A stretch of 34,489 nucleotides of DNA from Pseudomonadota bacterium (GTDB lineage: Bacteria > Bdellovibrionota > FAC87 > UBA2466), in NCBI GenBank assembly GCA_043718025.1, contig JAYSWN010000078.1:1-34489 (forward strand), given 5' to 3'. Below are positions 25,218 to 34,489 of the stretch, piece by piece. The position numbers and the translations under genes were made by a program. The notes under the pieces were generated by a model, which saw only the letters and a list, made by a program, of their open reading frames with translations, made no database searches and was not told where the DNA came from. Within the stretch, counting starts at the first letter, position 1. The number at the start of each line of letters is the position of its first letter.

Positions 25218-25832
25218 TTACGCCGGAACCGTAATTTTGGGGGCGTATTTGTACGCCAACCAGACCACACCACAACCAATGGCAATACAGGCTACCAACG
25301 TAAATCCGTTGATGCTGGGGTAGTTATTGGGAGCGATCATGCCGAAGAGCATCGGCCCCGAAAGGTACGTATTTACCTTTGACATGTGGGCGGCACGTTT
25401 CACAAGCGCGGGCATTTCTGGCGGGCTCTGGGCCGCTTTCACCCAACCCAAGATCTGTTTTTGGGCAGGCCAAATGATAAACCACACGTTGAACCACATA
25501 ATGCTTCCCAGCGTTGAGCCGAAAAGAATCCACATCGCCCGTTGAGTAAATTTGCCTTCGGTGTCGTACCAAAGGTTTCCACCCGAATATTTCACGAAAA
25601 GCAGTGTCCACCCGACGATAAAGGTGACCATTGCTCCCCAACGAAACCACCACAAAGCACGGTGTAGCAGTTGCGGATTCACCGCCGGCTTAAGCTCTTT
25701 AGCCAATTGGGTTTGAAAATTTGCATTCACGAAATTGAAAAAATAGAGATGACCAATCCACGTAATACCCGCAATCACGTGCAGCCACCGCAGAATGAAA
25801 AGTAAATTTGTATATAAATCGTCAAAGGCCAT
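25218..25832 (-). CDS. Urate hydroxylase PuuD-like (Urate_ox_N) membrane protein
   Basis: RWLHVIAGITWIGHLYFFN, ALWWFRW, IMWFNVWFIIWPAQK, NTYLS.P; ATG at 25832 after GGAGGG. Confidence 0.8.
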   Translation of the reverse strand: MAFDDLYTNLLFILRWLHVIAGITWIGHLYFFNFVNANFQTQLAKELKPAVNPQLLHRALWWFRWGAMVTFIVGWTLLFVKYSGGNLWYDTEGKFTQRAMWILFGSTLGSIMWFNVWFIIWPAQKQILGWVKAAQSPPEMPALVKRAAHMSKVNTYLSGPMLFGMIAPNNYPSINGFTLVACIAIGCGVVWLAYKYAPKITVPA

Positions 25833-26116
25833 GAGCCCCTCCACAAGTTTCGATTAGCCCCGCGCGCTGTCAGTGAAACCTACAATTGGTTTCGTCTTGC
25901 TCTACCGCGATGGCGAAAAATAATTGCAGATTCCACCACTTAAAAAAGGGTTAGGCCAGCTATTTCTCAATTGACACAGCGTCACTAAATTAGACGGCGC
26001 AAGTGCCCGAAACCCCTGACCTTCAGGCTTAAGGCCAAAGCCACCGGTTGCTGTAGACTCAAACCGCCTTTTTGGTATTCACCCCGCCCTTGAGTGCACC
26101 AAAAGAATACAAGCTA

Positions 26117-26133
26117 CGGTCCAGCGTATGCAC
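26117..26133 (+). promoter_or_regulatory. Sigma54-like -24/-12 element
   Basis: CGGTCCAGCGTATGCAC (GG-N10-GC); GC ends 15 nt before ATG 26147. Confidence 0.4.
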
Positions 26134-26146
26134 TGTTTTACGATCA

Positions 26147-27157
26147 ATGAGAGGCATCATCGTTCACAACTACCTATTGGCCGTGGGGCTTTTGCTCGTT
26201 CAGCCGCTACACGCTGAAGACGCGTTGAGTGGGGCCGCCGCCATCATCGGCGCCGCAGCTCCGATTGCCGTGGCCGGAATTCAAGCTGGCGCAGACAAAG
26301 CCATCGCCAAACTGAATGCCGCCGCCGAGTTAAAGAAGACCGAAATCAATGCCGATGTGGCGCGCGATACCAATCGTACCAATGCCACCATCGAATTAGA
26401 CCGAACCAAAACCGCCGCCGAAATCAACGCCATCAATCAAGAGGGATTGACCGATCGCCAGGCGATTGTATCGACGGAAAAAATTATTGCCACCCGAGAG
26501 GCCTATGCCACGCAGCGAGAAAAAAATTGGCGCGATTACGAATACAGCATCGCCCGCCTTCTCTCCGACGACAAAGCCCGTGAGCAGCAATTGGCTTTGG
26601 AGAAGCAAGCCCGCGACCTTCAAACTTCGATCGGAATGTTAGCGTCCACCGGATCTAATGGCGGGCTCACTATCAACCGGGTGGAGGCAGTAGCCGACCC
26701 GAGCGCGACCAATTCGCTTGCCGCCGCCGATACGTCGACAACCGCTACCGCCCTTGCCTCGGCAGGCACCCCTGAGCCTCAGCGTGCCAATACCGTTCAG
26801 AGTCGCTTAACCCGCACTTTGGCCGCTACTATCCCTTCAATGGCAGAAAAATTGACCGGCTTCCGCGCCAGTAAAAGAACCTCTTCCGTAGCTTCGCTTC
26901 CCCAGCTCGTGGCCACCGCCGCCCGGGTGGAGAAAAATAACCCGCTAGTCCGCGGGTCGCGCAGCACAAAACTTTTGCCGATTGCACTGGTGGCTGAAGA
27001 GACCCAAATTAAAACGTTGGGCAAAGTAGCTACCTCTCAGCGGGCGGCCTACTCTACTGGCATAGGCCACGGCACGATTGGTCGCCAAAACCAAGCCCCC
27101 CTGTTCGCCAGCGGCGACGGCGGCAGCGAATCAAGTCACGGTCACCACCAACATTGA
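26147..27157 (+). CDS. Hypothetical secreted protein: hydrophobic helix plus coiled coil, low-complexity tail
   Basis: Signal peptide ending LHA-E; module paralogous to the middle of 27513..29957; His-rich C-terminus; ATG 26147 preferred over TTG 26072. Confidence 0.75.
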   Translation: MRGIIVHNYLLAVGLLLVQPLHAEDALSGAAAIIGAAAPIAVAGIQAGADKAIAKLNAAAELKKTEINADVARDTNRTNATIELDRTKTAAEINAINQEGLTDRQAIVSTEKIIATREAYATQREKNWRDYEYSIARLLSDDKAREQQLALEKQARDLQTSIGMLASTGSNGGLTINRVEAVADPSATNSLAAADTSTTATALASAGTPEPQRANTVQSRLTRTLAATIPSMAEKLTGFRASKRTSSVASLPQLVATAARVEKNNPLVRGSRSTKLLPIALVAEETQIKTLGKVATSQRAAYSTGIGHGTIGRQNQAPLFASGDGGSESSHGHHQH

Positions 27158-27400
27158 GCGGTGGCGGGATGCGTATGCAGAAAACATCCGCGCGAATACA
27201 GCTAGTAACTCACTAAAATTAATCATTAATTCCTTAAAACAGCGCAACGACCAAACTCTGGACATAAGAACTTCAATGGTTCTAGGGCGTTACGATTTTG
27301 ACCAAGCAGGGGTGTAAACAATCTGCACTACCCCTTCCCTCGCTGGAGCGAAAACCTAAGGTTTCACGCAGGGTTATAGACAAGCAGTATTCACCAAAGT

Positions 27401-27417
27401 TGGCCGGCCGTGTGCAA
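27401..27417 (+). promoter_or_regulatory. Sigma54-like -24/-12 element
   Basis: TGGCCGGCCGTGTGCAA (TGGC-N8-TGC) in the long intergenic region upstream of 27513. Confidence 0.55.
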
Positions 27418-27512
27418 TTTAAACCAAGTAACAGAACCTTTATTTGCAGCTCTATCGGTACGTGCTCTTCACAGTTCAGACAGCAAAAAATCCTTTGGGG
27501 GATTTGAGTTAA

Positions 27513-29957
27513 ATGCACCGACGATTTTCCAACCTAAGCATCAAGGCCTTGACCGCACGAACACGCTCGTTCGTAGCTCACGTCATGATTGCTGCGCTAC
27601 TGCTTCCCGCGGCACCGCTGCACGCGGCCAAGCCCGGCGCCCCTCAAACTGGCTTTACCGCTGGTGGCCTAATGGGCCTCTCTGGATTTAGAACTTTAGT
27701 GCTCACAATCGCCATGGTGAACAAAGCCATGCGCGATGCTTCCGAAAACCCAATGGATGAATGGCGCCGCCAAAACGTGCGCATTGCCATGGGCCTTATG
27801 CCCGGGGCGATTGCCGGCATGGCCAAACACTTTTTCAATGGTCAGCTTGGCAATGGAGATCTTCCCGGCATTCAGGCAATGCTGGGCGGCTTCGTCGATA
27901 AGAACGCTGGCGATAATTACAAAAAGTTTTTGCTTAAGCCCGATAAGAACTTAATTCCCAAAACGGGCGCCAATTTTCCGAATGTACAAGCTCCGCCCGT
28001 GCCACGCTCCAGCGGCGATGCCGGAGTTGCCACAACCTCATCGAAGTCGGGAGACGCCAGCGTAGCCAACGGCCCAGTTTCTAAGCCCGCAGTCGACAAG
28101 ATGCCGACCAAAGAGATGGTCAGCTACTCCCAACGGTTAGAAGCTAAAACCGGCAGCACTAAGAGTGTTGGATACGATGACAGCGTTGCCAAGGCTTCGA
28201 ACGAAGGTACGGCGCCGAATTATTTGGAAGGCAAAGTTGCCAAACCCGAGGTTTCCTCCACACCGCAAGAAAATTTTGGCACTCGCGAAACCGCTTCGGT
28301 AGGCCCAACCGGTCAAGCCGGATCCTCGGCCGCGGAAGTTCCTAAAAACCGCGCCGGTTTACCTTACATTGGTAGCGAAACGGTAATGGAAGCCTCGCGC
28401 GAGATGCGAAGTTTAGAAGGCCGCGCTCCGGCTTCGTCGGGTGAAACCTCTTCTCTCTCGGTGATTCGTACGGGCAAAGAGAAAAAAGGCGACAGCGCTT
28501 CTGAGGATGAAGAGTTTTTCTCTAGCGTCGGTAAAGATGGCCAGGCTAAAAACAAAGCCAAATTAAAAAAGAAGTTAGAGCGTCGCCCCTCTACCAAGCC
28601 AACTTCGTTCCGCGGCAACAACCACTTCTTACGCTTCTTCGCCTTAGGCCTTAGCGCCATCACTACCGATGCCCATGCCGAAGGAGAAGAGGGCCAGCGC
28701 TCCGGCGCCGACGCCGGAATGATTTTAATGGGAATCGCCGCCATCATCGGAGCCATTGCGCCTATTTTTATTGCCAGCACGCAAGCTAACGCCGACAAGG
28801 CAATCGCTAAAACTAACGCCGATGCCCAGATCAAGATGACCGAGATCAGCGCCTCTACCCAAAAAGAGGCCAACAATATTGCTAGAGACGTAGCCCTCAC
28901 CCAAAGCGCCACCGCTAAAGAGGTGGCGATCACCAATAATGAAGCCGTGACTGACCGCTTGAATATTCAACTGGCTGAGCTGCGCTCGGCGAGAGGCGAA
29001 GCCCAGCAAGCCGAACGGGAACGCCGGCAATTAGATGAGTCTTACAATCAACAACGCATTGCTTTGGCCGAAAAGCAGTCACAACAAAATTTAGATCTAG
29101 CCAAAGAGACTTTGGCCGCCCAGTTAAGCGAAGCTGGCCTGCGCCAAGGCTTTTCTAACTCGGCCAATTCAGGCAATCGTTTAACGACGACAACCACGAT
29201 CGCGGCGGCAGGCAGTTCAAATTCTTCCGGCACTAGCAGAACTTCGGCCGGCGCCGGCGCCTCGGCCTCGGTGGGGCAGGCTTTTTCACAAGCCTCTGCC
29301 GCAAAGGGAACGGGTAACGTGAGTGCCTCAGGTTCGGCGGCTGCTTCCAACTCTAGTCGTGGCCCGGCTTCGGTAGAAACTAACAAAGGCAACACGATGG
29401 CAACGCGGCTTTCAGGAGTCTCGGCTCGTGGCGCTACGGGTGAGACCAGCGAACTAGACCCCAATTTTGCCGCCTCAACTACCTATGGCGAAGACGCGGT
29501 AAAAGCTTGCGCAGGATTAAAGGATAAAAAGGAAAAAAAGGATGAGTATTTAGCGTGCTTAAAATCCCAAAGCAAATCGCGCGGCGCAAGTCCGACTCGC
29601 AGCCGACTTTTAAAAGCCAACACACTAGCCTTTAGCGCTAACGCCGCGCCACGAGGATTTGCCGCTCGCTTATCGGCGGTCACCAATCCCACGGTGGGCG
29701 GTTCCACTGCCGGCAACTTGCAAGAGACCGCCGAGATGCGCGCCTTCGCCGGCAATCGGCCCAATCCTTTAAATAAAGGGAGCAGCTTTGGCGATTTTAT
29801 AGGAGGCAGTCGCGGCTCAGCGAAACCTTCAGATGATTTTGCCGGCTACCGCGCCAGCGGAGAAACCCCGCACCGCAACTTAAGCTCCGACGTTCAAAAG
29901 ATTAGCGGCGGGCACAAAGCCGAGAGTCGGGGCATTCGGGGTTTAATCGAGCCCTAA
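27513..29957 (+). CDS. Large hypothetical secreted protein with internal hydrophobic and coiled-coil module
   Basis: 814 aa ORF; signal peptide ending LHA-A; Ser/Ala/Gly-rich disordered regions; shares a module with 26147..27157. Confidence 0.8.
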   Translation: MHRRFSNLSIKALTARTRSFVAHVMIAALLLPAAPLHAAKPGAPQTGFTAGGLMGLSGFRTLVLTIAMVNKAMRDASENPMDEWRRQNVRIAMGLMPGAIAGMAKHFFNGQLGNGDLPGIQAMLGGFVDKNAGDNYKKFLLKPDKNLIPKTGANFPNVQAPPVPRSSGDAGVATTSSKSGDASVANGPVSKPAVDKMPTKEMVSYSQRLEAKTGSTKSVGYDDSVAKASNEGTAPNYLEGKVAKPEVSSTPQENFGTRETASVGPTGQAGSSAAEVPKNRAGLPYIGSETVMEASREMRSLEGRAPASSGETSSLSVIRTGKEKKGDSASEDEEFFSSVGKDGQAKNKAKLKKKLERRPSTKPTSFRGNNHFLRFFALGLSAITTDAHAEGEEGQRSGADAGMILMGIAAIIGAIAPIFIASTQANADKAIAKTNADAQIKMTEISASTQKEANNIARDVALTQSATAKEVAITNNEAVTDRLNIQLAELRSARGEAQQAERERRQLDESYNQQRIALAEKQSQQNLDLAKETLAAQLSEAGLRQGFSNSANSGNRLTTTTTIAAAGSSNSSGTSRTSAGAGASASVGQAFSQASAAKGTGNVSASGSAAASNSSRGPASVETNKGNTMATRLSGVSARGATGETSELDPNFAASTTYGEDAVKACAGLKDKKEKKDEYLACLKSQSKSRGASPTRSRLLKANTLAFSANAAPRGFAARLSAVTNPTVGGSTAGNLQETAEMRAFAGNRPNPLNKGSSFGDFIGGSRGSAKPSDDFAGYRASGETPHRNLSSDVQKISGGHKAESRGIRGLIEP

Positions 29958-30000
29958 CCATTTCTTAAGGGGGTAAGGATACGACAAACGTAGTCCTTCG

Positions 30001-30036
30001 AGGGGAGAGTTCCCAAAGACTCTCCCCTTTTTTTTT
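30001..30036 (+). terminator. Intrinsic terminator
   Basis: AGGGGAGAGT...ACTCTCCCCT followed by a long T run. Confidence 0.88.
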
Positions 30037-30252
30037 CAGTCCCCACCAAAATTAAATCACCCTCCACTGAAGACAAGCAGTAAACAGCCCGTGTACTCAC
30101 TGCATACACACCAAAGTTCAATGCTCTTAAGCAGTTACTAATTGCTGGGCGGACTTTGACCAAAGGATCCGCATGGTTTTTGGTGTTTAAGATCTATCGA
30201 TGATAAAAATGAGGTAGTTTCAAATAGATAGCCGCCAATTTTCATTCACCTT

Positions 30253-30284: not shown

Positions 30285-31316
30285 ATGACACTTAAGCCGC
30301 AAAACCTTTGCCTCCTTTTAGTGACGTGTGCCTTTAGCGCCACGCCCGTCTGGGCCGAGTACGCCGCCGGCGGCATTGAAGAGGCTCAAGCACTGCCCAA
30401 GGTCATTACCGACACCAAAGCCCCCATCTCTCCCGAAACGATGGCGGCGGTGATTGCTAAGGTAAAAGCCAATCCGGCCCTCACGAATGCTTTGATTCAA
30501 GCAAACCCTCGCTACAAAGCCCTTTTGGGTCTTGGTGAAAATAGTGCCCCGGCACCATTGGCCAACGTGGCTTCCGGAGCCGAGGCTCCCCCCGTGGCCT
30601 TCACACCGGCGCCACGCCACTCGCCCGCTTCAAAAGAAAGCGTTCGATTGAATGAAACGCTGCTGCAGGTACGAAATATTTTAGGCGGCGCAGAACCGCA
30701 ATTCGCCACCTCCGCTCCCAGCGCGGACCGTAACGATCAAGCTTTTGCCCAACAAAACATTCCCGACACCAACCGTTTTGGTGAACCACTCACTATTTCT
30801 GAGGCCGCCACGCCGGCCTCTGGCCGCCGCTTATTGGGCGGTTTAGATCCGCAAAATTCCCGACGCGAGCGTTCGGCAGAAATTCTCGAACTAAAAAGAA
30901 AAATCTTATTGCAGAAAGAACGCCGTTTTGCCCGGCTCTCTAATTCAAATGGGGGAGCCTCGCTTCAGGCGTCTTTAGAATTTAACCGTCGCGTTCGCGG
31001 CGCCGTTGGCCCGCAAGGCGATGGCCGCGGTTTTCAGCTTGCGATGCGCGACATTTCAGAGACCGCAGAACCGCGCCCCGCTCCAAATGATTCGATTCGA
31101 CGCCGTAAGATCATCGGCGGAGAAAATCGCGTGGCCAAGCCCGTATCGGCAACCGAAGAGACCGATCTCATTTCACACAAGTACCTATACAGCACCGCCG
31201 TGATTAAAGAAGGCGCCGAAGGCGGTGGCGGAATTGGCGAAGCCATCAAGCAGAGCGTATCCCAGTCGATCGCTAAGCCCCAAACGGCCGGGCCGCTCGA
31301 ACCCCGGCTGCGCTAA
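30285..31316 (+). CDS. Hypothetical secreted protein, largely low-complexity
   Basis: Signal peptide ending VWA-E; Pro/Ala-rich; short basic helix. Confidence 0.7.
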   Translation: MTLKPQNLCLLLVTCAFSATPVWAEYAAGGIEEAQALPKVITDTKAPISPETMAAVIAKVKANPALTNALIQANPRYKALLGLGENSAPAPLANVASGAEAPPVAFTPAPRHSPASKESVRLNETLLQVRNILGGAEPQFATSAPSADRNDQAFAQQNIPDTNRFGEPLTISEAATPASGRRLLGGLDPQNSRRERSAEILELKRKILLQKERRFARLSNSNGGASLQASLEFNRRVRGAVGPQGDGRGFQLAMRDISETAEPRPAPNDSIRRRKIIGGENRVAKPVSATEETDLISHKYLYSTAVIKEGAEGGGGIGEAIKQSVSQSIAKPQTAGPLEPRLR

Positions 31317-31366: not shown

Positions 31367-32368
31367 ATGCAAGAATCCCGACCAGCCATTTCGATTCTCA
31401 TGCCGACCTATCAGGGTGAAACTTTTTTGCCGCTGGCGCTTGAGTCGGTCTCCAACCAAAATTTTACGAACTACGAATTGCTGATTCGCGATGACGGCTC
31501 AAAAGATCGCACCCTGGCAATCATCGAGTCTTTCAAGGTGCCGCAATTCAGATTGATAAAAACCCCGACAATAAAACCGGGCCTGTTTTCCAACCTCAAC
31601 GCTCTGCTCAAAGAGGCCAAGGCCCCGCTGGTTCAAATTTTGTGTCAGGATGATGTGCTTGAACCCGATGCCCTTAAAGAGATCTCGGCCTATTGGGACA
31701 CCCACGCCACGATCGAACTGCTATTTACCAAGCACCGCATGATGGATTGGGAGGGCAACTTGGGCGCCATGCCATCGCTCACCGATTTACCGGACGTCCT
31801 CTCGTCTCAGCTCGCCCTTCAACAGTTTTTTTTTCACGGCTGCATTCCGAGCAATCTCTCTACGGTATCTTTTCGCACGCGATCGGCGTGGGCGTTGGGC
31901 GGGTTCAACGAATCGCTGCGGGTCTCGGGCGACTACGAATTTTGGGTACGCTTGGTCAATACCGGCGCCATGGGCATTTTACAAAAGCCGCTAATTCGAG
32001 TGCGTGGACATGAAGGGCAACTGAGCCGCCAAACCGCCTCGGGCCCCTACTTCGTGCGAGAAAACCGTGCGGTGCGACGGTTCATTCTCGATCAATTTCC
32101 AATGGGTTTAAAAACCGCGGCGGCCGGTTTCGAAAAGAAGCGGCACGGCGTCTTAGATTTTCACCTTGCCCTTCGCACGGCCTTAAAAGGCGAAGTGAAA
32201 AGCGCGTGGGCCATTCTCTGCAGCCTAGGAATCAAAGATTCTTTGCTGGCCGCGTTTTACTGGGTTACCACCGCGAACAACCACCTAAGGCCATCGGCCC
32301 CATTTCAGATTCCAGAAGAAGATAAGGCTAGCCAAACACCCGGCGATAAAGCGAAGCGTAGCTCTTAA
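31367..32368 (+). CDS. GT2 family glycosyltransferase
   Basis: ISILMPTY, DDGSKD, QDD motif, GGFNE...DYEFW. Confidence 0.9.
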   Translation: MQESRPAISILMPTYQGETFLPLALESVSNQNFTNYELLIRDDGSKDRTLAIIESFKVPQFRLIKTPTIKPGLFSNLNALLKEAKAPLVQILCQDDVLEPDALKEISAYWDTHATIELLFTKHRMMDWEGNLGAMPSLTDLPDVLSSQLALQQFFFHGCIPSNLSTVSFRTRSAWALGGFNESLRVSGDYEFWVRLVNTGAMGILQKPLIRVRGHEGQLSRQTASGPYFVRENRAVRRFILDQFPMGLKTAAAGFEKKRHGVLDFHLALRTALKGEVKSAWAILCSLGIKDSLLAAFYWVTTANNHLRPSAPFQIPEEDKASQTPGDKAKRSS

Positions 32369-33314
32369 CTAGATCCAATGGCTGAGGTTTTGGCAAAACA
32401 GAGAGTCTCTCTATCGCCCTGCGCATGTAATCGCCGCCCGAAAAAACCGAGGGGTTGCGAACAAAATCGTCTAACGACCACAACGAGTCCTCATCCCATT
32501 CGCTAAGCGCCCCGTGCCCTGACCAAAAAAGCACGGGAATTCCCCAGGCAATCGCTTCCCAAGCCAACATCCCGGAATCCAGGGGCCGGGCCACGTCGTA
32601 AACCAACGTCTCCGCTCGGCCGAGCAAAGTGAGCCAGGGTTTTGGACCGGTAGTTTTCAAATCATCAAGAGAGATAAAAAGCACTTCACGGTCGGGGCGG
32701 GCTTGACGCCATATTTGCGTCGCCTTCACCAAGCGGGTTGTGCCGCCGCGGCCATCCGATACAACCACCATCAAATGAGGCAACTGGGCGCGCTGCGCTT
32801 CGTGAAAAAATAAAAACCGGCGCGGCCCCGGGGTGACAACGTGAACCGTATTGGGATTGACGTCGGCAGCGTGCCGCAAAAACCAAAGTTTATCCGCCTG
32901 CGAAGGCACCACGTGCTGCTCCCACGCCCCCCCCCGAATCTTCACGTTTAGCGGCGCACGATGGCTAGGCAACCAGGTGGTTAGGGTGGGTTTAGCGAGT
33001 CGCTCGGCGGCAAAACCAAACGGGCGAAAACGGTGGATAAAGCTGACCGGCGCTCGACTGACAAACCGGCGCTCCCAAAAATGGGGAAAGGCCCAACCGG
33101 TGGGCGGCACACGCGTATCGTAGCGTTTCCATGGTCCGGCAAAAATTTGGCCTTTGTTAGAAAGCAGCACGGTGCGGTGGCGGTTCACCCACGGACTCTC
33201 TTCGTCACCGTGGTAGGCCGCCAGCTCATCCACGAACTCACCCACCTCATGCCCCGCCTGTCCCCAGAGCGGGGAAACACGGGTGTCGATGCAAAGACGG
33301 GGCGTGTGTAACAT
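32328..33314 (-). CDS. Divergent GT-B (GT4-like) fold protein
   Basis: N-terminal RLCIDTR and C-terminal GMLAWEAIAWGIPV resemble GT4 motifs; otherwise degenerate; GGGGG RBS. Confidence 0.55.
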   Translation of the reverse strand: MLHTPRLCIDTRVSPLWGQAGHEVGEFVDELAAYHGDEESPWVNRHRTVLLSNKGQIFAGPWKRYDTRVPPTGWAFPHFWERRFVSRAPVSFIHRFRPFGFAAERLAKPTLTTWLPSHRAPLNVKIRGGAWEQHVVPSQADKLWFLRHAADVNPNTVHVVTPGPRRFLFFHEAQRAQLPHLMVVVSDGRGGTTRLVKATQIWRQARPDREVLFISLDDLKTTGPKPWLTLLGRAETLVYDVARPLDSGMLAWEAIAWGIPVLFWSGHGALSEWDEDSLWSLDDFVRNPSVFSGGDYMRRAIERLSVLPKPQPLDLVKSYASLYRRVFG

Positions 33315-33464: not shown

Positions 33465-34489
33465 CTAGAAGACCTCGTTGCCAGTAGGCTCGGCCAGCAA
33501 GTCCGCGGTGGTCAGCTTATGTTTCAAGTTAAATTCTCGACGCAGTTGCGAGATCGACTCGTAAATCGGCAACCGCACGCGTTGCACTCCACCCAACGGC
33601 TGATGTTCCACTCGTGAATGCCAAGGGGTGAGGGCAATATTCTCACAGAACTCGTCCTGCCGTCCCACGGTAAAGTCCTGTTTGGGAATGTTTAAACGAG
33701 CCACCCGGTACATTTTCGTTTTCCATTCCACCGTAGGATCTTCAATGGGCTCGGTGACTTTATCTTTGTCCTTGTTCTCTTGAAATTGAACATAGAAATC
33801 GAAGCACGCGCTGGCTTGGGCAAGTCCATTTTTCAGCGCCTTACGCAAATAGCGATCGTACGTAGGCGAGAGATCTTTCACGTGCGCCGCAATATCGCCG
33901 GGCGCCTTTAGATCCTTAAGCACCTTAATCAGCGGCTTCAGATCCAAGTCTCCAATGCTGTCGAAACTTTGGGTCACCGCGCAAGGACGGGCCGAGTACT
34001 TCACCGCATTTTTTCCGTAAAGCACGGGGGTCATGCTGAAGTAGCGGCTCTCGATGGGGCTTGTCGTAATCTGCATCGCAATTTTAGTTGCGATACCGGC
34101 CTCCGTCGGGTGAGACGCCATGAACTTGCCCTTATCCTGAAAAAAGGCCGCGTAGTCCTTTACGTCTTTCACAAAAAATTGGCTGTGATTGATCATCAAA
34201 AAATCTTGGGTGTGAAGTTCGTTTGTCTTTTCGAGTTTGATGCGCGGGCCTTCAACGCCCATCACTTTGATGGCCATGCCGCGGCCATCGGGAATGTAAT
34301 CTGGCTGCAATTGCCCAGAGCCATTCGAAAACCGAATATAGGCTTTGTAAGATTTGGCCTCGGCAAAAAAGCCCTGACGAAGTTTTTCGAGCGTCTCTTT
34401 GTTTACATTCAGATCCTTGTCCGAAAGCACGCTAAAACTGGCACGAACGCAGCCGTGGGCTTGGGGGTGAGCATCGCGCACCGCTTTAA
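33465..34489 (-). CDS. Catalase-like heme protein (catalase-related family), 5' end outside the window
   Basis: RDAH.xAHGC distal His, RFSN, DGRGMAIKV, QDFLMIN, PWH....PLG...R.R..IY proximal Tyr; frame stays open to the window edge. Confidence 0.85.
   Translation of the reverse strand, partial: KAVRDAHPQAHGCVRASFSVLSDKDLNVNKETLEKLRQGFFAEAKSYKAYIRFSNGSGQLQPDYIPDGRGMAIKVMGVEGPRIKLEKTNELHTQDFLMINHSQFFVKDVKDYAAFFQDKGKFMASHPTEAGIATKIAMQITTSPIESRYFSMTPVLYGKNAVKYSARPCAVTQSFDSIGDLDLKPLIKVLKDLKAPGDIAAHVKDLSPTYDRYLRKALKNGLAQASACFDFYVQFQENKDKDKVTEPIEDPTVEWKTKMYRVARLNIPKQDFTVGRQDEFCENIALTPWHSRVEHQPLGGVQRVRLPIYESISQLRREFNLKHKLTTADLLAEPTGNEVF

Follow-up and report, generated by a model that had tools for sequence, protein, structure and literature searches.

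Type I signal peptidase is taught as an enzyme that needs a membrane-spanning signal. In Bradyrhizobium FbcH, one gene encodes two products that signal peptidase I separates at an internal A-x-A; in polyproteins of this type, an odd number of membrane helices is followed by an internal signal that itself spans the membrane. A different arrangement is described for the pestivirus Erns/E1 junction, where signal peptidase cuts after an amphipathic helix that lies in-plane and has A-(Y/N/H)-A at its end (as outlined in PMC8310223, which cites Bintintan and Meyers 2010 as the primary paper on the site). RsiV of Bacillus subtilis is an anti-sigma factor with an N-terminal membrane helix as its anchor; its signal-peptidase site is gated by amphipathic helices, which shield the site until lysozyme binds (as outlined in PMC6066255). 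For the region behind the site discussed here, the related structure type is the Gln/Ala-rich 11/3 coiled coil of the microvirus DNA pilot protein H (PDB 4JPN, PF04687; as outlined in PMC7354561).

The window, which is the whole analysed stretch of 34,489 nucleotides, holds at positions 27513-29957 a single 814-codon open reading frame on the forward strand, as are all features given below. Its product (P0001) is a predicted two-product precursor, and the fused form is found in 61 homologues and also in both families of the order. The protein begins with a predicted N-terminal Sec signal peptide (residues 1-38, 27513-27626; best 12-mer 2.6 on the Kyte-Doolittle [KD] scale) with the cut predicted after A38. 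It is followed by an N-domain (residues 50-158, 27660-27986), a helical bundle predicted with pLDDT above 90 and without a Pfam or NCBIfam match, and by a disordered linker (residues 159-344, 27987-28544; pLDDT mostly below 50) without a hydrophobic 19-mer. A Lys/Arg-rich basic stretch (residues 345-364, 28545-28604; mean net charge +5, consensus K-P-K-Y-W) ends at a conserved proline, Pro363. Then come an amphipathic helix with a predicted in-plane position in the membrane (residues 371-384, 28623-28664), as judged from its moment, its hydropathy and a model helix at 371-382 that passes into coil, and A387-H388-A389|E390 (28671-28682), a predicted signal peptidase I site that is coil in the model.

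Beyond the predicted cut lies a polar tip, which measures 9 residues in the window copy (28680-28706) and 2-56 residues in the family, where it is Gly/acid-rich, hypervariable and often has paired Cys. A hydrophobic Gly/Ala-rich helix of transmembrane strength with a conserved Pro417 follows (28707-28775; best 19-mer KD 2.55); 60 of 61 homologues reach at least KD 1.6 here. The coiled coil (residues 422-545, 28776-29147) has an 11/3 period of 3.67 in its first half (Fourier analysis of residues 422-480), and in the predicted model one continuous helix spans residues 399-544. The protein ends in a basic low-complexity tail (29148-29954; pLDDT below 50, mean net charge +8), and a terminator-like hairpin with a T run, found by pattern match only, lies 3' of the gene (30000-30039). 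Upstream is a short paralogue of 336 residues, read from the Met at 26147 (26147-27157), with a true signal peptide and then the same helix and coiled coil. The module behind the internal site matches it at 38% identity over 145 residues (E 6e-14), starting about 9 residues after the site, and the tandem order of short and then long gene is seen in most relatives.

After Sec export, type I signal peptidase likely makes a further cut in the precursor at Ala389|Glu390, acting from the outside of the inner membrane, with the in-plane helix standing in for the usual spanning signal; judged from sequence, we put the probability at about 0.6. In an alignment of the 61 full-length homologues, Ala387 is kept in 56, Ala389 in 58 and Glu390 in 40, and the two alanines are the top-conserved positions of the 240-residue linker; the homologues are kin, so these counts overstate independence. 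Pro363 is present in 54 of 61 sequences, and Trp occupies the column of residue 373 in 38. Because the Gly columns of the Gly-rich tail also reach up to 93% in the same alignment, an alignment-free check was added: an A-x-A ends 16-22 residues past a P-x(1-2)-aromatic anchor in 25 of the 38 homologues that have this anchor (it is absent in 23 of 61), against 13% expected from the linker background. The A-x-A, whose conservation the sequence-only reading had named as a check, is therefore conserved far above chance. All 28 genomic long genes checked, and both of those added later, have A-x-A or V-x-A. Spacing of the A-x-A is constant to the upstream helix and not to the module, from which it is parted by 2-56 residues.

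The residue pattern fits the (-3,-1) rule rather than a fold, with at least 11 residue types over positions -2, -4 and -5 and Pro at +1 in none of the 61. In 60 of 61 sequences, two of them doubtfully aligned, the residues at this column satisfy a loose form of the rule; P0064, and probably P0035 too, are without a clean site. A matrix was built from 137 signal peptides of the genome studied (G000), which had been picked heuristically; it separated the internal sites only modestly from 491 other A-x-A occurrences (AUC 0.61, p 0.005). His stands at -2 in 31 of 61 internal sites versus 11 of 137 of the genome's own signals, an excess that could reflect plain descent or another constraint.

The A-x-A also marks a sharp boundary in the variability of the protein and behaves like a cleavage boundary. 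Among 11 close relatives of one genus, identity is 0.97 in the signal and N-domain, 0.96 in the linker, 0.91 in the motif, 0.42 in the 13-60 residues directly after the site, and 0.97 in both module and tail. A second set, of three sequences, gives 0.67 after the site versus 0.87-0.96 elsewhere. The hypervariable tip points to a surface role. It also revises what an internal cut would release: the sequence-only reading proposed that signal peptidase frees the coiled-coil module with a hydrophobic N-terminus, of which we can support, by inference, the cut at AHA|E; the new N-terminus would instead be the polar, hypervariable tip of 2-56 residues, standing before the hydrophobic helix.

In a paralogue from one genus of the sister family, position +2 of the site is probably a selenocysteine. 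An in-frame TGA is present there in 3 of 3 genomes of the genus, with coding conservation on both sides and synonymous changes upstream; Cys is found at +2 in 5 of the 61 long forms. A candidate stem-loop 3' of the TGA keeps the same register, has an apical loop starting with G, 23 of 24 cells paired and two compensatory pairs, and is equalled by 60 of 500 shuffles of this G-rich region. G036 encodes SelA, SelB, SelD and tRNA-Sec, and G037 (81% complete) has tRNA-Sec and a broken-looking SelD; no selenocysteine machinery over the cut-off was found in G035 (79% complete). No control hairpin of the selenocysteine type was found, the SelD of these genomes being of the Cys type, and metagenome contigs gave no further copies of the TGA-bearing paralogue.

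Both families of the order have the long gene in fused form as a rule, and stand-alone genes made of signal and module are common. In a quick tree, the latter pair with fused genes in at least four places with SH-aLRT values of 98-100, which indicates that, ahead of the module, the internal site and a real signal peptide can take each other's place. The motif is retained with a different N-terminal part in third paralogues (563 residues in G007, 552 residues in G017, and P0102), and in three genomes of one sister-family genus, where the N-domain is absent, it follows a canonical signal peptide at a distance of about 12 residues. No stand-alone N-domain gene of 68-217 residues was found. Of 27 further N-domain proteins, 22 have the module; another four come from short contigs or carry the label partial, and the last has a cluster mate of full length. 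A gene split in the sister family was considered and proved apparent only, as the N-domain genes there have both the motif and a module, though a diverged one. The earlier suggestion that two secreted genes simply fused is thus unsupported, the fused form being the rule and no intact stand-alone N-domain gene having been found. A putative kinship between the internal site and the genuine signal-peptidase site that the paralogue carries is supported. The likeness once drawn between the segment and the N-terminus of that paralogue stands for the cleavage region and fails for the "h-region," which is far weaker than in real signals.

It is unlikely, in our judgement, that the protein stays whole, with the amphipathic helix serving as a membrane tether or packing on the N-domain and the A-x-A surviving as a relic of an old fusion or for packing. 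Cleavage products have yet to be observed, decay of the "h-region" is evident, the internal site scores only modestly on the genome's own matrix, and a weak contact of the N-domain with residues 350-548 is predicted. This prediction scored 0.57, with a best control of 0.03 and with one of three N-domain complex runs at only 0.04; it is weak and gives no interface. The contact mark used (at least 70% of contacts shared between runs, with a partner pLDDT of 58 or more) is found in 116 of 157 solved pairs and 2 of 215 mismatched pairs, and scores of 0.60 or less comprise 18 of the solved pairs and both mismatches. However, a relic at -3 and -1 should decay as the h-region did, yet these alanines are the top-conserved linker positions among homologues that are 24-47% identical. 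Moreover, the motif persists where there is no N-domain in cis, and variability begins exactly past the second Ala.

Cleavage by another enzyme, either a non-S26 periplasmic or surface protease with a preference for Ala or the protein itself, seems quite unlikely. The extended K-P-K-Y-W element is more sequence-specific than usual signal peptides. A motif profile search of G000 and 45 relatives found no other protein with the motif, barring one doubtful match (E 0.006) to the N-terminus of an M16-like peptidase ORF; this fits a dedicated recognition site, and a genome-wide class of such internal sites, which we had considered, is not seen in these genomes. Nevertheless, no protease gene is conserved adjoining the locus, the residue pattern is that of signal peptidase I, and a true signal peptide replaces the motif in relatives. 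G000 has three S26 peptidases, and phylum members without this family likewise have two or three (range 1-4), so that nothing points to a dedicated enzyme.

A canonical internal signal peptide of the FbcH type, in which the linker would go back to the cytoplasm and the segment restart export, we consider very improbable. The basic stretch with its net charge of +5, the hydrophobic residues and then an A-x-A at (-3,-1) do resemble such a signal, and the window copy, whose best 12-mer has KD 1.85, is among the more hydrophobic members (17 of 61 reach 1.6). Across the family, however, the best 12-mer of the internal "h-region" stands at KD 1.29 versus 2.48 and 2.34 in real signal peptides, and a charged residue falls within the best 12-mer in 49 of 61 internal segments versus 3 of 56 N-terminal signals. 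No internal segment (0 of 61) has a 19-mer at the transmembrane level of KD 1.6. Its approximate insertion energy averages 7.2 kcal/mol, with a minimum of 4.0, compared with -2.3 to 0.2 kcal/mol for three real helices of the window. The hydrophobic moment is 1.32, versus 0.93 and 0.86 in real signals, and peaks at 100 degrees. A stop-transfer helix upstream is likewise missing: KD 1.6 is reached by 5 of 61 N-domains and 0 of 60 linkers, and no N-domain (0 of 61) has an approximate insertion energy below 1 kcal/mol. By its predicted properties the segment is an amphipathic, usually charged helix and not an export signal, and the earlier description of it as signal-peptide-like does not extend to a working signal peptide. 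Since it cannot span the membrane and no stop-transfer helix precedes it, the segment would be met from the periplasmic side.

The reading frame itself is sound. Re-reading confirmed the Lys-rich stretch, residues 367-389 and the A-x-A|E before the shared module, together with the claim that neither a stop nor an in-frame Met directly precedes the segment: there is no stop and no in-frame ATG, GTG or TTG 50 to 15 codons ahead of the site. An artefact in which a missed stop joins two genes, or a second gene starts within the first, is hardly credible: a TTG or GTG with a Shine-Dalgarno-like word lies up to 50 codons before the site in 4 of 28 relatives, but at differing positions, G000 has no in-frame internal start and none is conserved among relatives, Logan contigs (from two runs that are possibly the very source of this DNA) agree over 26000-30100 with 0 differences and 0 gaps, and the gene is a single ORF in 61 homologues, which answers the suggestion that relatives might split it at the segment. 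Among the data sets listed as containing the sequence, none is from RNA.

For a second cut by signal peptidase, the following course may be proposed. The N-terminal signal would send the chain through Sec, and the four-helix domain and disordered linker would enter the periplasm, because hydropathy indicates no transmembrane helix after that signal. The basic stretch and amphipathic helix would dock on the periplasmic leaflet and offer A-H-A to an S26 peptidase. The cut would give product A (39-389), with the bundle, the linker and the membrane-binding helix, and product B (390-814), starting like the mature short paralogue and ordered as polar tip, hydrophobic helix and 11/3 coiled coil of about 20 nm. 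Product B would probably stay anchored in a membrane through its own helix and oligomerise to form a rod of the envelope or surface whose exposed tip varies; full export of the coiled coil is slightly favoured. The bundle would probably cap the module until or after the cut, for which the predicted contact of the N-domain with residues 350-548 gives weak support. It is improbable, though conceivable, that the precursor is latent, the four-helix cap holding the module until a triggered cut arms a membrane-inserting, pilot-like 11/3 tube together with the short paralogue, with a tip that diversifies under phage or prey pressure and starts with a selenocysteine U-x-x-C in one genus.

Two domains without a known family are fixed across a whole uncultured order. 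The long protein has no match in Pfam (the short paralogue has one sub-threshold tape-measure match) and none in NCBIfam. PHROGs gave scattered weak matches, among them an Rz-like spanin in the case of the window copy (1 of 61 full proteins, 2 of 61 modules) and, in 27 of 61 modules, the unnamed phrog_5158 (E up to 0.1). The top ESM Atlas scores, 0.77 and 0.76, lie under the useful range, and Foldseek searches, with the full model in PDB and with the N-domain in viral structures, gave nothing at E 0.001. The N-domain model is closest to periplasmic four-helix sensor domains (PDB 4K0D, 2YFA and 3VA9, Z 6.1-7.3), the best match being a sensor bundle with Z 7.3 and an rmsd of 3.0 over 95 aligned residues. 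Values below about 13 are, however, generic for helical bundles, and the N-domain has neither a sequence match to these sensors nor flanking membrane helices.

The likeness to microvirus H is one of coiled-coil type only. In the PDB, the module profile matches the sequence of 4JPN alone (E 0.091), and more members match PF04687 than any other Pfam family (3 of 61, best E 0.0028), both below threshold. Homology was rejected: the profile-to-sequence probability in hhalign is 7%, the PF04687 model finds nothing in G000 at E 1, and the only two phage matches of the module by tblastn are at chance level. In contrast to H, which builds a decameric DNA-conducting tube, the members of this family are chromosomal core genes with signal peptides.

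Compared with FbcH-type polyproteins, the 814-residue protein has no helix ahead of the site, and its segment cannot span the membrane. With RsiV, as far as PMC6066255 describes it, the family shares a bacterial signal-peptidase site outside a normal signal peptide and the involvement of amphipathic helices in control, but here the membrane helix comes after the site and no sigma factor is nearby. A literature search, mostly outside subscription journals, gave no bacterial example of such an in-plane site, and the available text of PMC9360617 has nothing on this site type. The pestivirus Erns/E1 site, in the account of PMC8310223, has the following features: an internal site without an h-region, a charged in-plane helix followed by A-x-A on the exported side, and a membrane-bound partner downstream. 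The family has the corresponding features, an amphipathic helix without an h-region adjoining the A-x-A (mostly A-H-A) with Ala at -3 and -1 in 56 and 58 of 61, and its helix is predicted, from hydropathy, to lie in-plane on the exported side of the membrane. On the other hand, Erns/E1 belongs to a viral polyprotein cut by the eukaryotic signal peptidase complex and has no sequence relation to the family; its cleavage is demonstrated, whereas ours is inferred, and the bacterial helix is shorter, at about 14 residues. The family offers natural controls in its fused, stand-alone and double-signal forms. If our reading is right, there is a class of mature N-termini that escapes signal-peptide predictors, the product of a conserved bacterial core gene presents an A-x-A some 350 residues downstream of its export signal, and bacteria natively use an in-plane A-x-A mode known from one viral polyprotein.

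A single open reading frame of 814 codons (window 27513-29957) encodes the long protein, in which an N-terminal signal peptide (residues 1-38), an N-domain and a disordered linker precede an internal A-x-A site and a coiled-coil module. The segment singled out by the sequence-only reading, residues 367-389, is present in this frame with a Lys-rich stretch before it (Lys/Arg-rich at residues 345-364), and it ends in A387-H388-A389, followed by E390. That reading had noted a missing internal Met, and codons -50 to -15 before the site indeed hold no in-frame ATG, GTG or TTG. No conserved internal start was found among 28 genomic copies; in 4 of them a start with a Shine-Dalgarno-like word lies before the site, at differing positions. 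The internal site is real. Its conservation was confirmed across 61 full-length homologues that share 24-47% identity with the query: A389 (58), A387 (56) and P363 (54) are the most conserved positions within residues 160-397, and E390 is retained in 40. Substitutions are V, S, L and G at -3, and G (twice) and P (once) at -1; proline at +1 was absent from all 61. A clean site is missing in protein P0064 and probably also in P0035. Because glycines in the low-complexity tail are conserved at up to 93% too, we added an alignment-free check. Among 38 sequences carrying a Pro-aromatic anchor, an A-x-A ends 16-22 residues further on in 25, versus 13% expected; the 23 sequences without the anchor were left uncounted. 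A matrix built from 137 signal peptides that were picked heuristically from this genome ranked the internal sites only modestly above 491 further A-x-A motifs (AUC 0.61).

The site also behaves like a cleavage boundary. It keeps an almost constant spacing from the upstream helix, while its spacing from the module helix ranges from 2 to 56 residues. In 11 close relatives from one genus, aligned identity is 0.97 in the signal peptide and N-domain, 0.96 in the disordered linker, 0.91 in the 30 residues before the site, only 0.42 in the 13-60 residues directly after it, and 0.97 in the module and tail; a second set of three relatives gave 0.67 after the site versus 0.87-0.96 elsewhere. Across P0103, P0161 and P0164-P0172, the post-site segment is hypervariable in both sequence and length (13-60 aa), with all else 91-97% identical. 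The spacer holds two or four cysteines in 24 of the 61 homologues, one in 6 and none in 31. The motif is portable as well: it is retained in proteins with a different part in place of the N-domain (G007, 563 aa; G017, 552 aa; P0102), and three genomes (G035, G036 and G037) encode a canonical signal peptide, ~12 residues, the whole motif and the module, with no N-domain. Since the signal peptide already gives export there, the motif is retained for another purpose. A quick, preliminary tree was built from 132 modules, 57 of its 128 branches being open. It places stand-alone signal-plus-module genes next to fused partners (P0101/P0098, support 100; P0056/P0053, 99; P0031/P0043, 98) and also inside a clade of 11 (support 100); we claim no order of events between fused and stand-alone forms. 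The sequence-only reading had asked whether relatives split the gene; no intact stand-alone N-domain gene was detected.

The interpretation of residues 367-389 as an internal signal peptide fared less well. The best 12-mer before the site is less hydrophobic (mean Kyte-Doolittle value 1.29) than those of the proteins' own N-terminal signals (2.48, n = 56) and of the short forms (2.34, n = 62). Charged residues occur within 49 of the 61 internal 12-mers, versus 3 of 56 and 7 of 62 for these signals, and no pre-site 19-mer reaches 1.6. The hydrophobic moment of the segment is 1.32, versus 0.93 and 0.86 for real signals, its profile peaks at 100 degrees, and the structure model has a helix at residues 371-382, then coil. 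Approximate insertion energies average 7.2 kcal/mol for the internal segment (minimum 4.0) and are -2.3 to 0.2 for three real helices of the window. Upstream helices reaching a Kyte-Doolittle value of 1.6 were found in 5 of 61 N-domains and 0 of 60 linkers. With no upstream helix to bring the chain back to the cytoplasm, the segment would, by established Sec topology, be met in the periplasm. By these sequence measures, the pre-site segment is not an export signal.

We propose, with a probability of about 60%, that the long protein is exported first and that one of the genome's three type I signal peptidases then cuts at Ala389|Glu390 while the amphipathic helix lies flat against the periplasmic leaflet. 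The analysis itself documents the architecture, the conservation, the hydropathy, the variability boundary and the portability of the motif; the docking, the cut, the enzyme and the capping role belong to the proposal. The best-surviving alternative is an uncut chain with the segment as a relic or tether, which seems unlikely for a site with such boundary behaviour. Cleavage there by another protease is slightly less likely still, and the 36-genome synteny comparison revealed no conserved protease gene adjoining the locus. A canonical internal signal of the FbcH type is improbable: the predicted periplasmic location of the segment, with no upstream return helix, rules against it. An artefact is scarcely credible, window 26000-30100 being letter-identical in contigs of two runs, although those contigs are possibly the window's own source.

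Post-export cleavage would release two products. The N-domain is confidently modeled as a helical bundle (mean pLDDT 88), and its top structural matches, periplasmic sensor bundles, have Z of 7.3 or less, the generic level. The module behind the site is 38% identical over 145 residues to the upstream gene (26147-27157, start Met at 26147), and these are the genome's only two module copies. It is modeled as a single helix (residues 399-544), which begins with a Gly/Ala-rich part and continues as a coiled coil of period 3.67. In long forms the Gly/Ala-rich helix has transmembrane strength (below 1 kcal/mol in 56 of 61), and in short-like stand-alone forms it is weaker (7 of 48). In the PDB the module matches only phiX174 protein H, in its hendecad part (E 0.091), a decamer spanning the cell wall (PMC7354561); direct comparison gave a probability of 7%, so homology was rejected and the likeness is in coil type only. 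On the one hand, the strong module helix of long forms argues for a stop-transfer anchor with the coiled coil inside. On the other hand, the weak helix of short paralogues, the missing post-helix basic cluster (net -0.5) and tail cysteines numbering only 0 or 2 (56 and 5 of 61) argue for an exported coiled coil. Complex prediction for the N-domain with residues 350-548 scored 0.57 (runs 0.58, 0.04 and 0.57; best control 0.03), a mark that 116 of 157 solved pairs reach, as do 2 of 215 mismatched ones; 18 of the solved pairs and both mismatches lie at this level. Run contacts agree at least 70% and partner pLDDT is at least 58; the prediction weakly supports a contact in which the N-domain may act as a cap.

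Module and N-domain give identical counts: 31 of 33 genomes in the family, 4 of 4 in its sister family and 0 of 23 elsewhere in the phylum. A 61-row module profile recovered 35 of the order's 37 other genomes; among 213 genomes from the rest of the phylum it gave one weak match (E 1e-4). Depositors labeled the relatives as Bdellovibrionota, Bdellovibrionales, Deltaproteobacteria or Proteobacteria MAGs. The locus is syntenic, usually short gene then long; upstream, 31 of 36 genomes share a membrane-protein gene (Urate-oxidase-N-like and divergent, window 25218-25844), with IHF and sugar-transferase genes beyond. At L037 (G008) and L110 the locus has one short and two long copies, the internal site kept in both long ones, and L017 and L051 (G025) have the usual pair plus two extra tandem genes with a long-type module behind their own signal peptides. 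Downstream lie a 343-aa signal-peptide protein with no family match (30285-31316), found there only in three own-genus genomes; a 328-aa protein with no Pfam or NCBIfam match (32328-33314), conserved at this position in 17 genomes and often followed by a ComEC-like metallo-beta-lactamase gene; and a catalase-related frame cut by the window end (33465-34489, weak PF00199 match). In G016, short pieces closely resembling the coiled coil of the neighbouring module occur in a vWA-like membrane protein of 791 aa that is encoded three genes away (L044:3821-6193), which suggests local capture.

In the double-signal paralogue of the sister genus, an invariant in-frame TGA occupies codon +2 after the site (L059:8472-8474 in G035, L060:2891-2893 in G036 and L062:8367-8369 in G037), followed by Gly-Gly-Cys. 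Synonymous changes lie upstream of it, the downstream frame is intact (416-425 codons) with no signal of its own, and a same-register downstream hairpin has a loop starting with G; its stem is paired in 23 of 24 cells, two of the pairs being compensatory, a result equalled by 60 of 500 shuffles. A G in the apical loop is the bacterial SECIS hallmark (PMC1088965 and PMC13582414). SelA, SelB, SelD and tRNA-Sec are present in G036 and tRNA-Sec in G037; in G035 (79% complete) no Sec machinery exceeded the cut-off. Selenocysteine is probable in the U-x-x-C (U-G-G-C) tip. The 81%-complete assembly of G037 has apparent frameshifts, through either error or decay, in one module gene and in SelD (L062:6430-7275 and L114). 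The window's own genome has SelA, SelB, SelD and tRNA-Sec (C82 and C149), and a crude scan of it found no convincing selenoprotein gene.

Polyproteins cut by signal peptidase are a known kind. What appears new here is a putative site with no preceding spanning helix, conserved throughout an order in a core gene whose two domains match no known family; the literature searched, mainly open-access articles, contained no bacterial case. The closest precedent is pestivirus Erns/E1, where signal peptidase cuts an in-plane amphipathic helix ending A-(Y/N/H)-A, with a strict need for both alanines (PMC8310223). Among bacteria the parallel is RsiV, in which amphipathic helices control a site where signal peptidase can act (PMC6066255).
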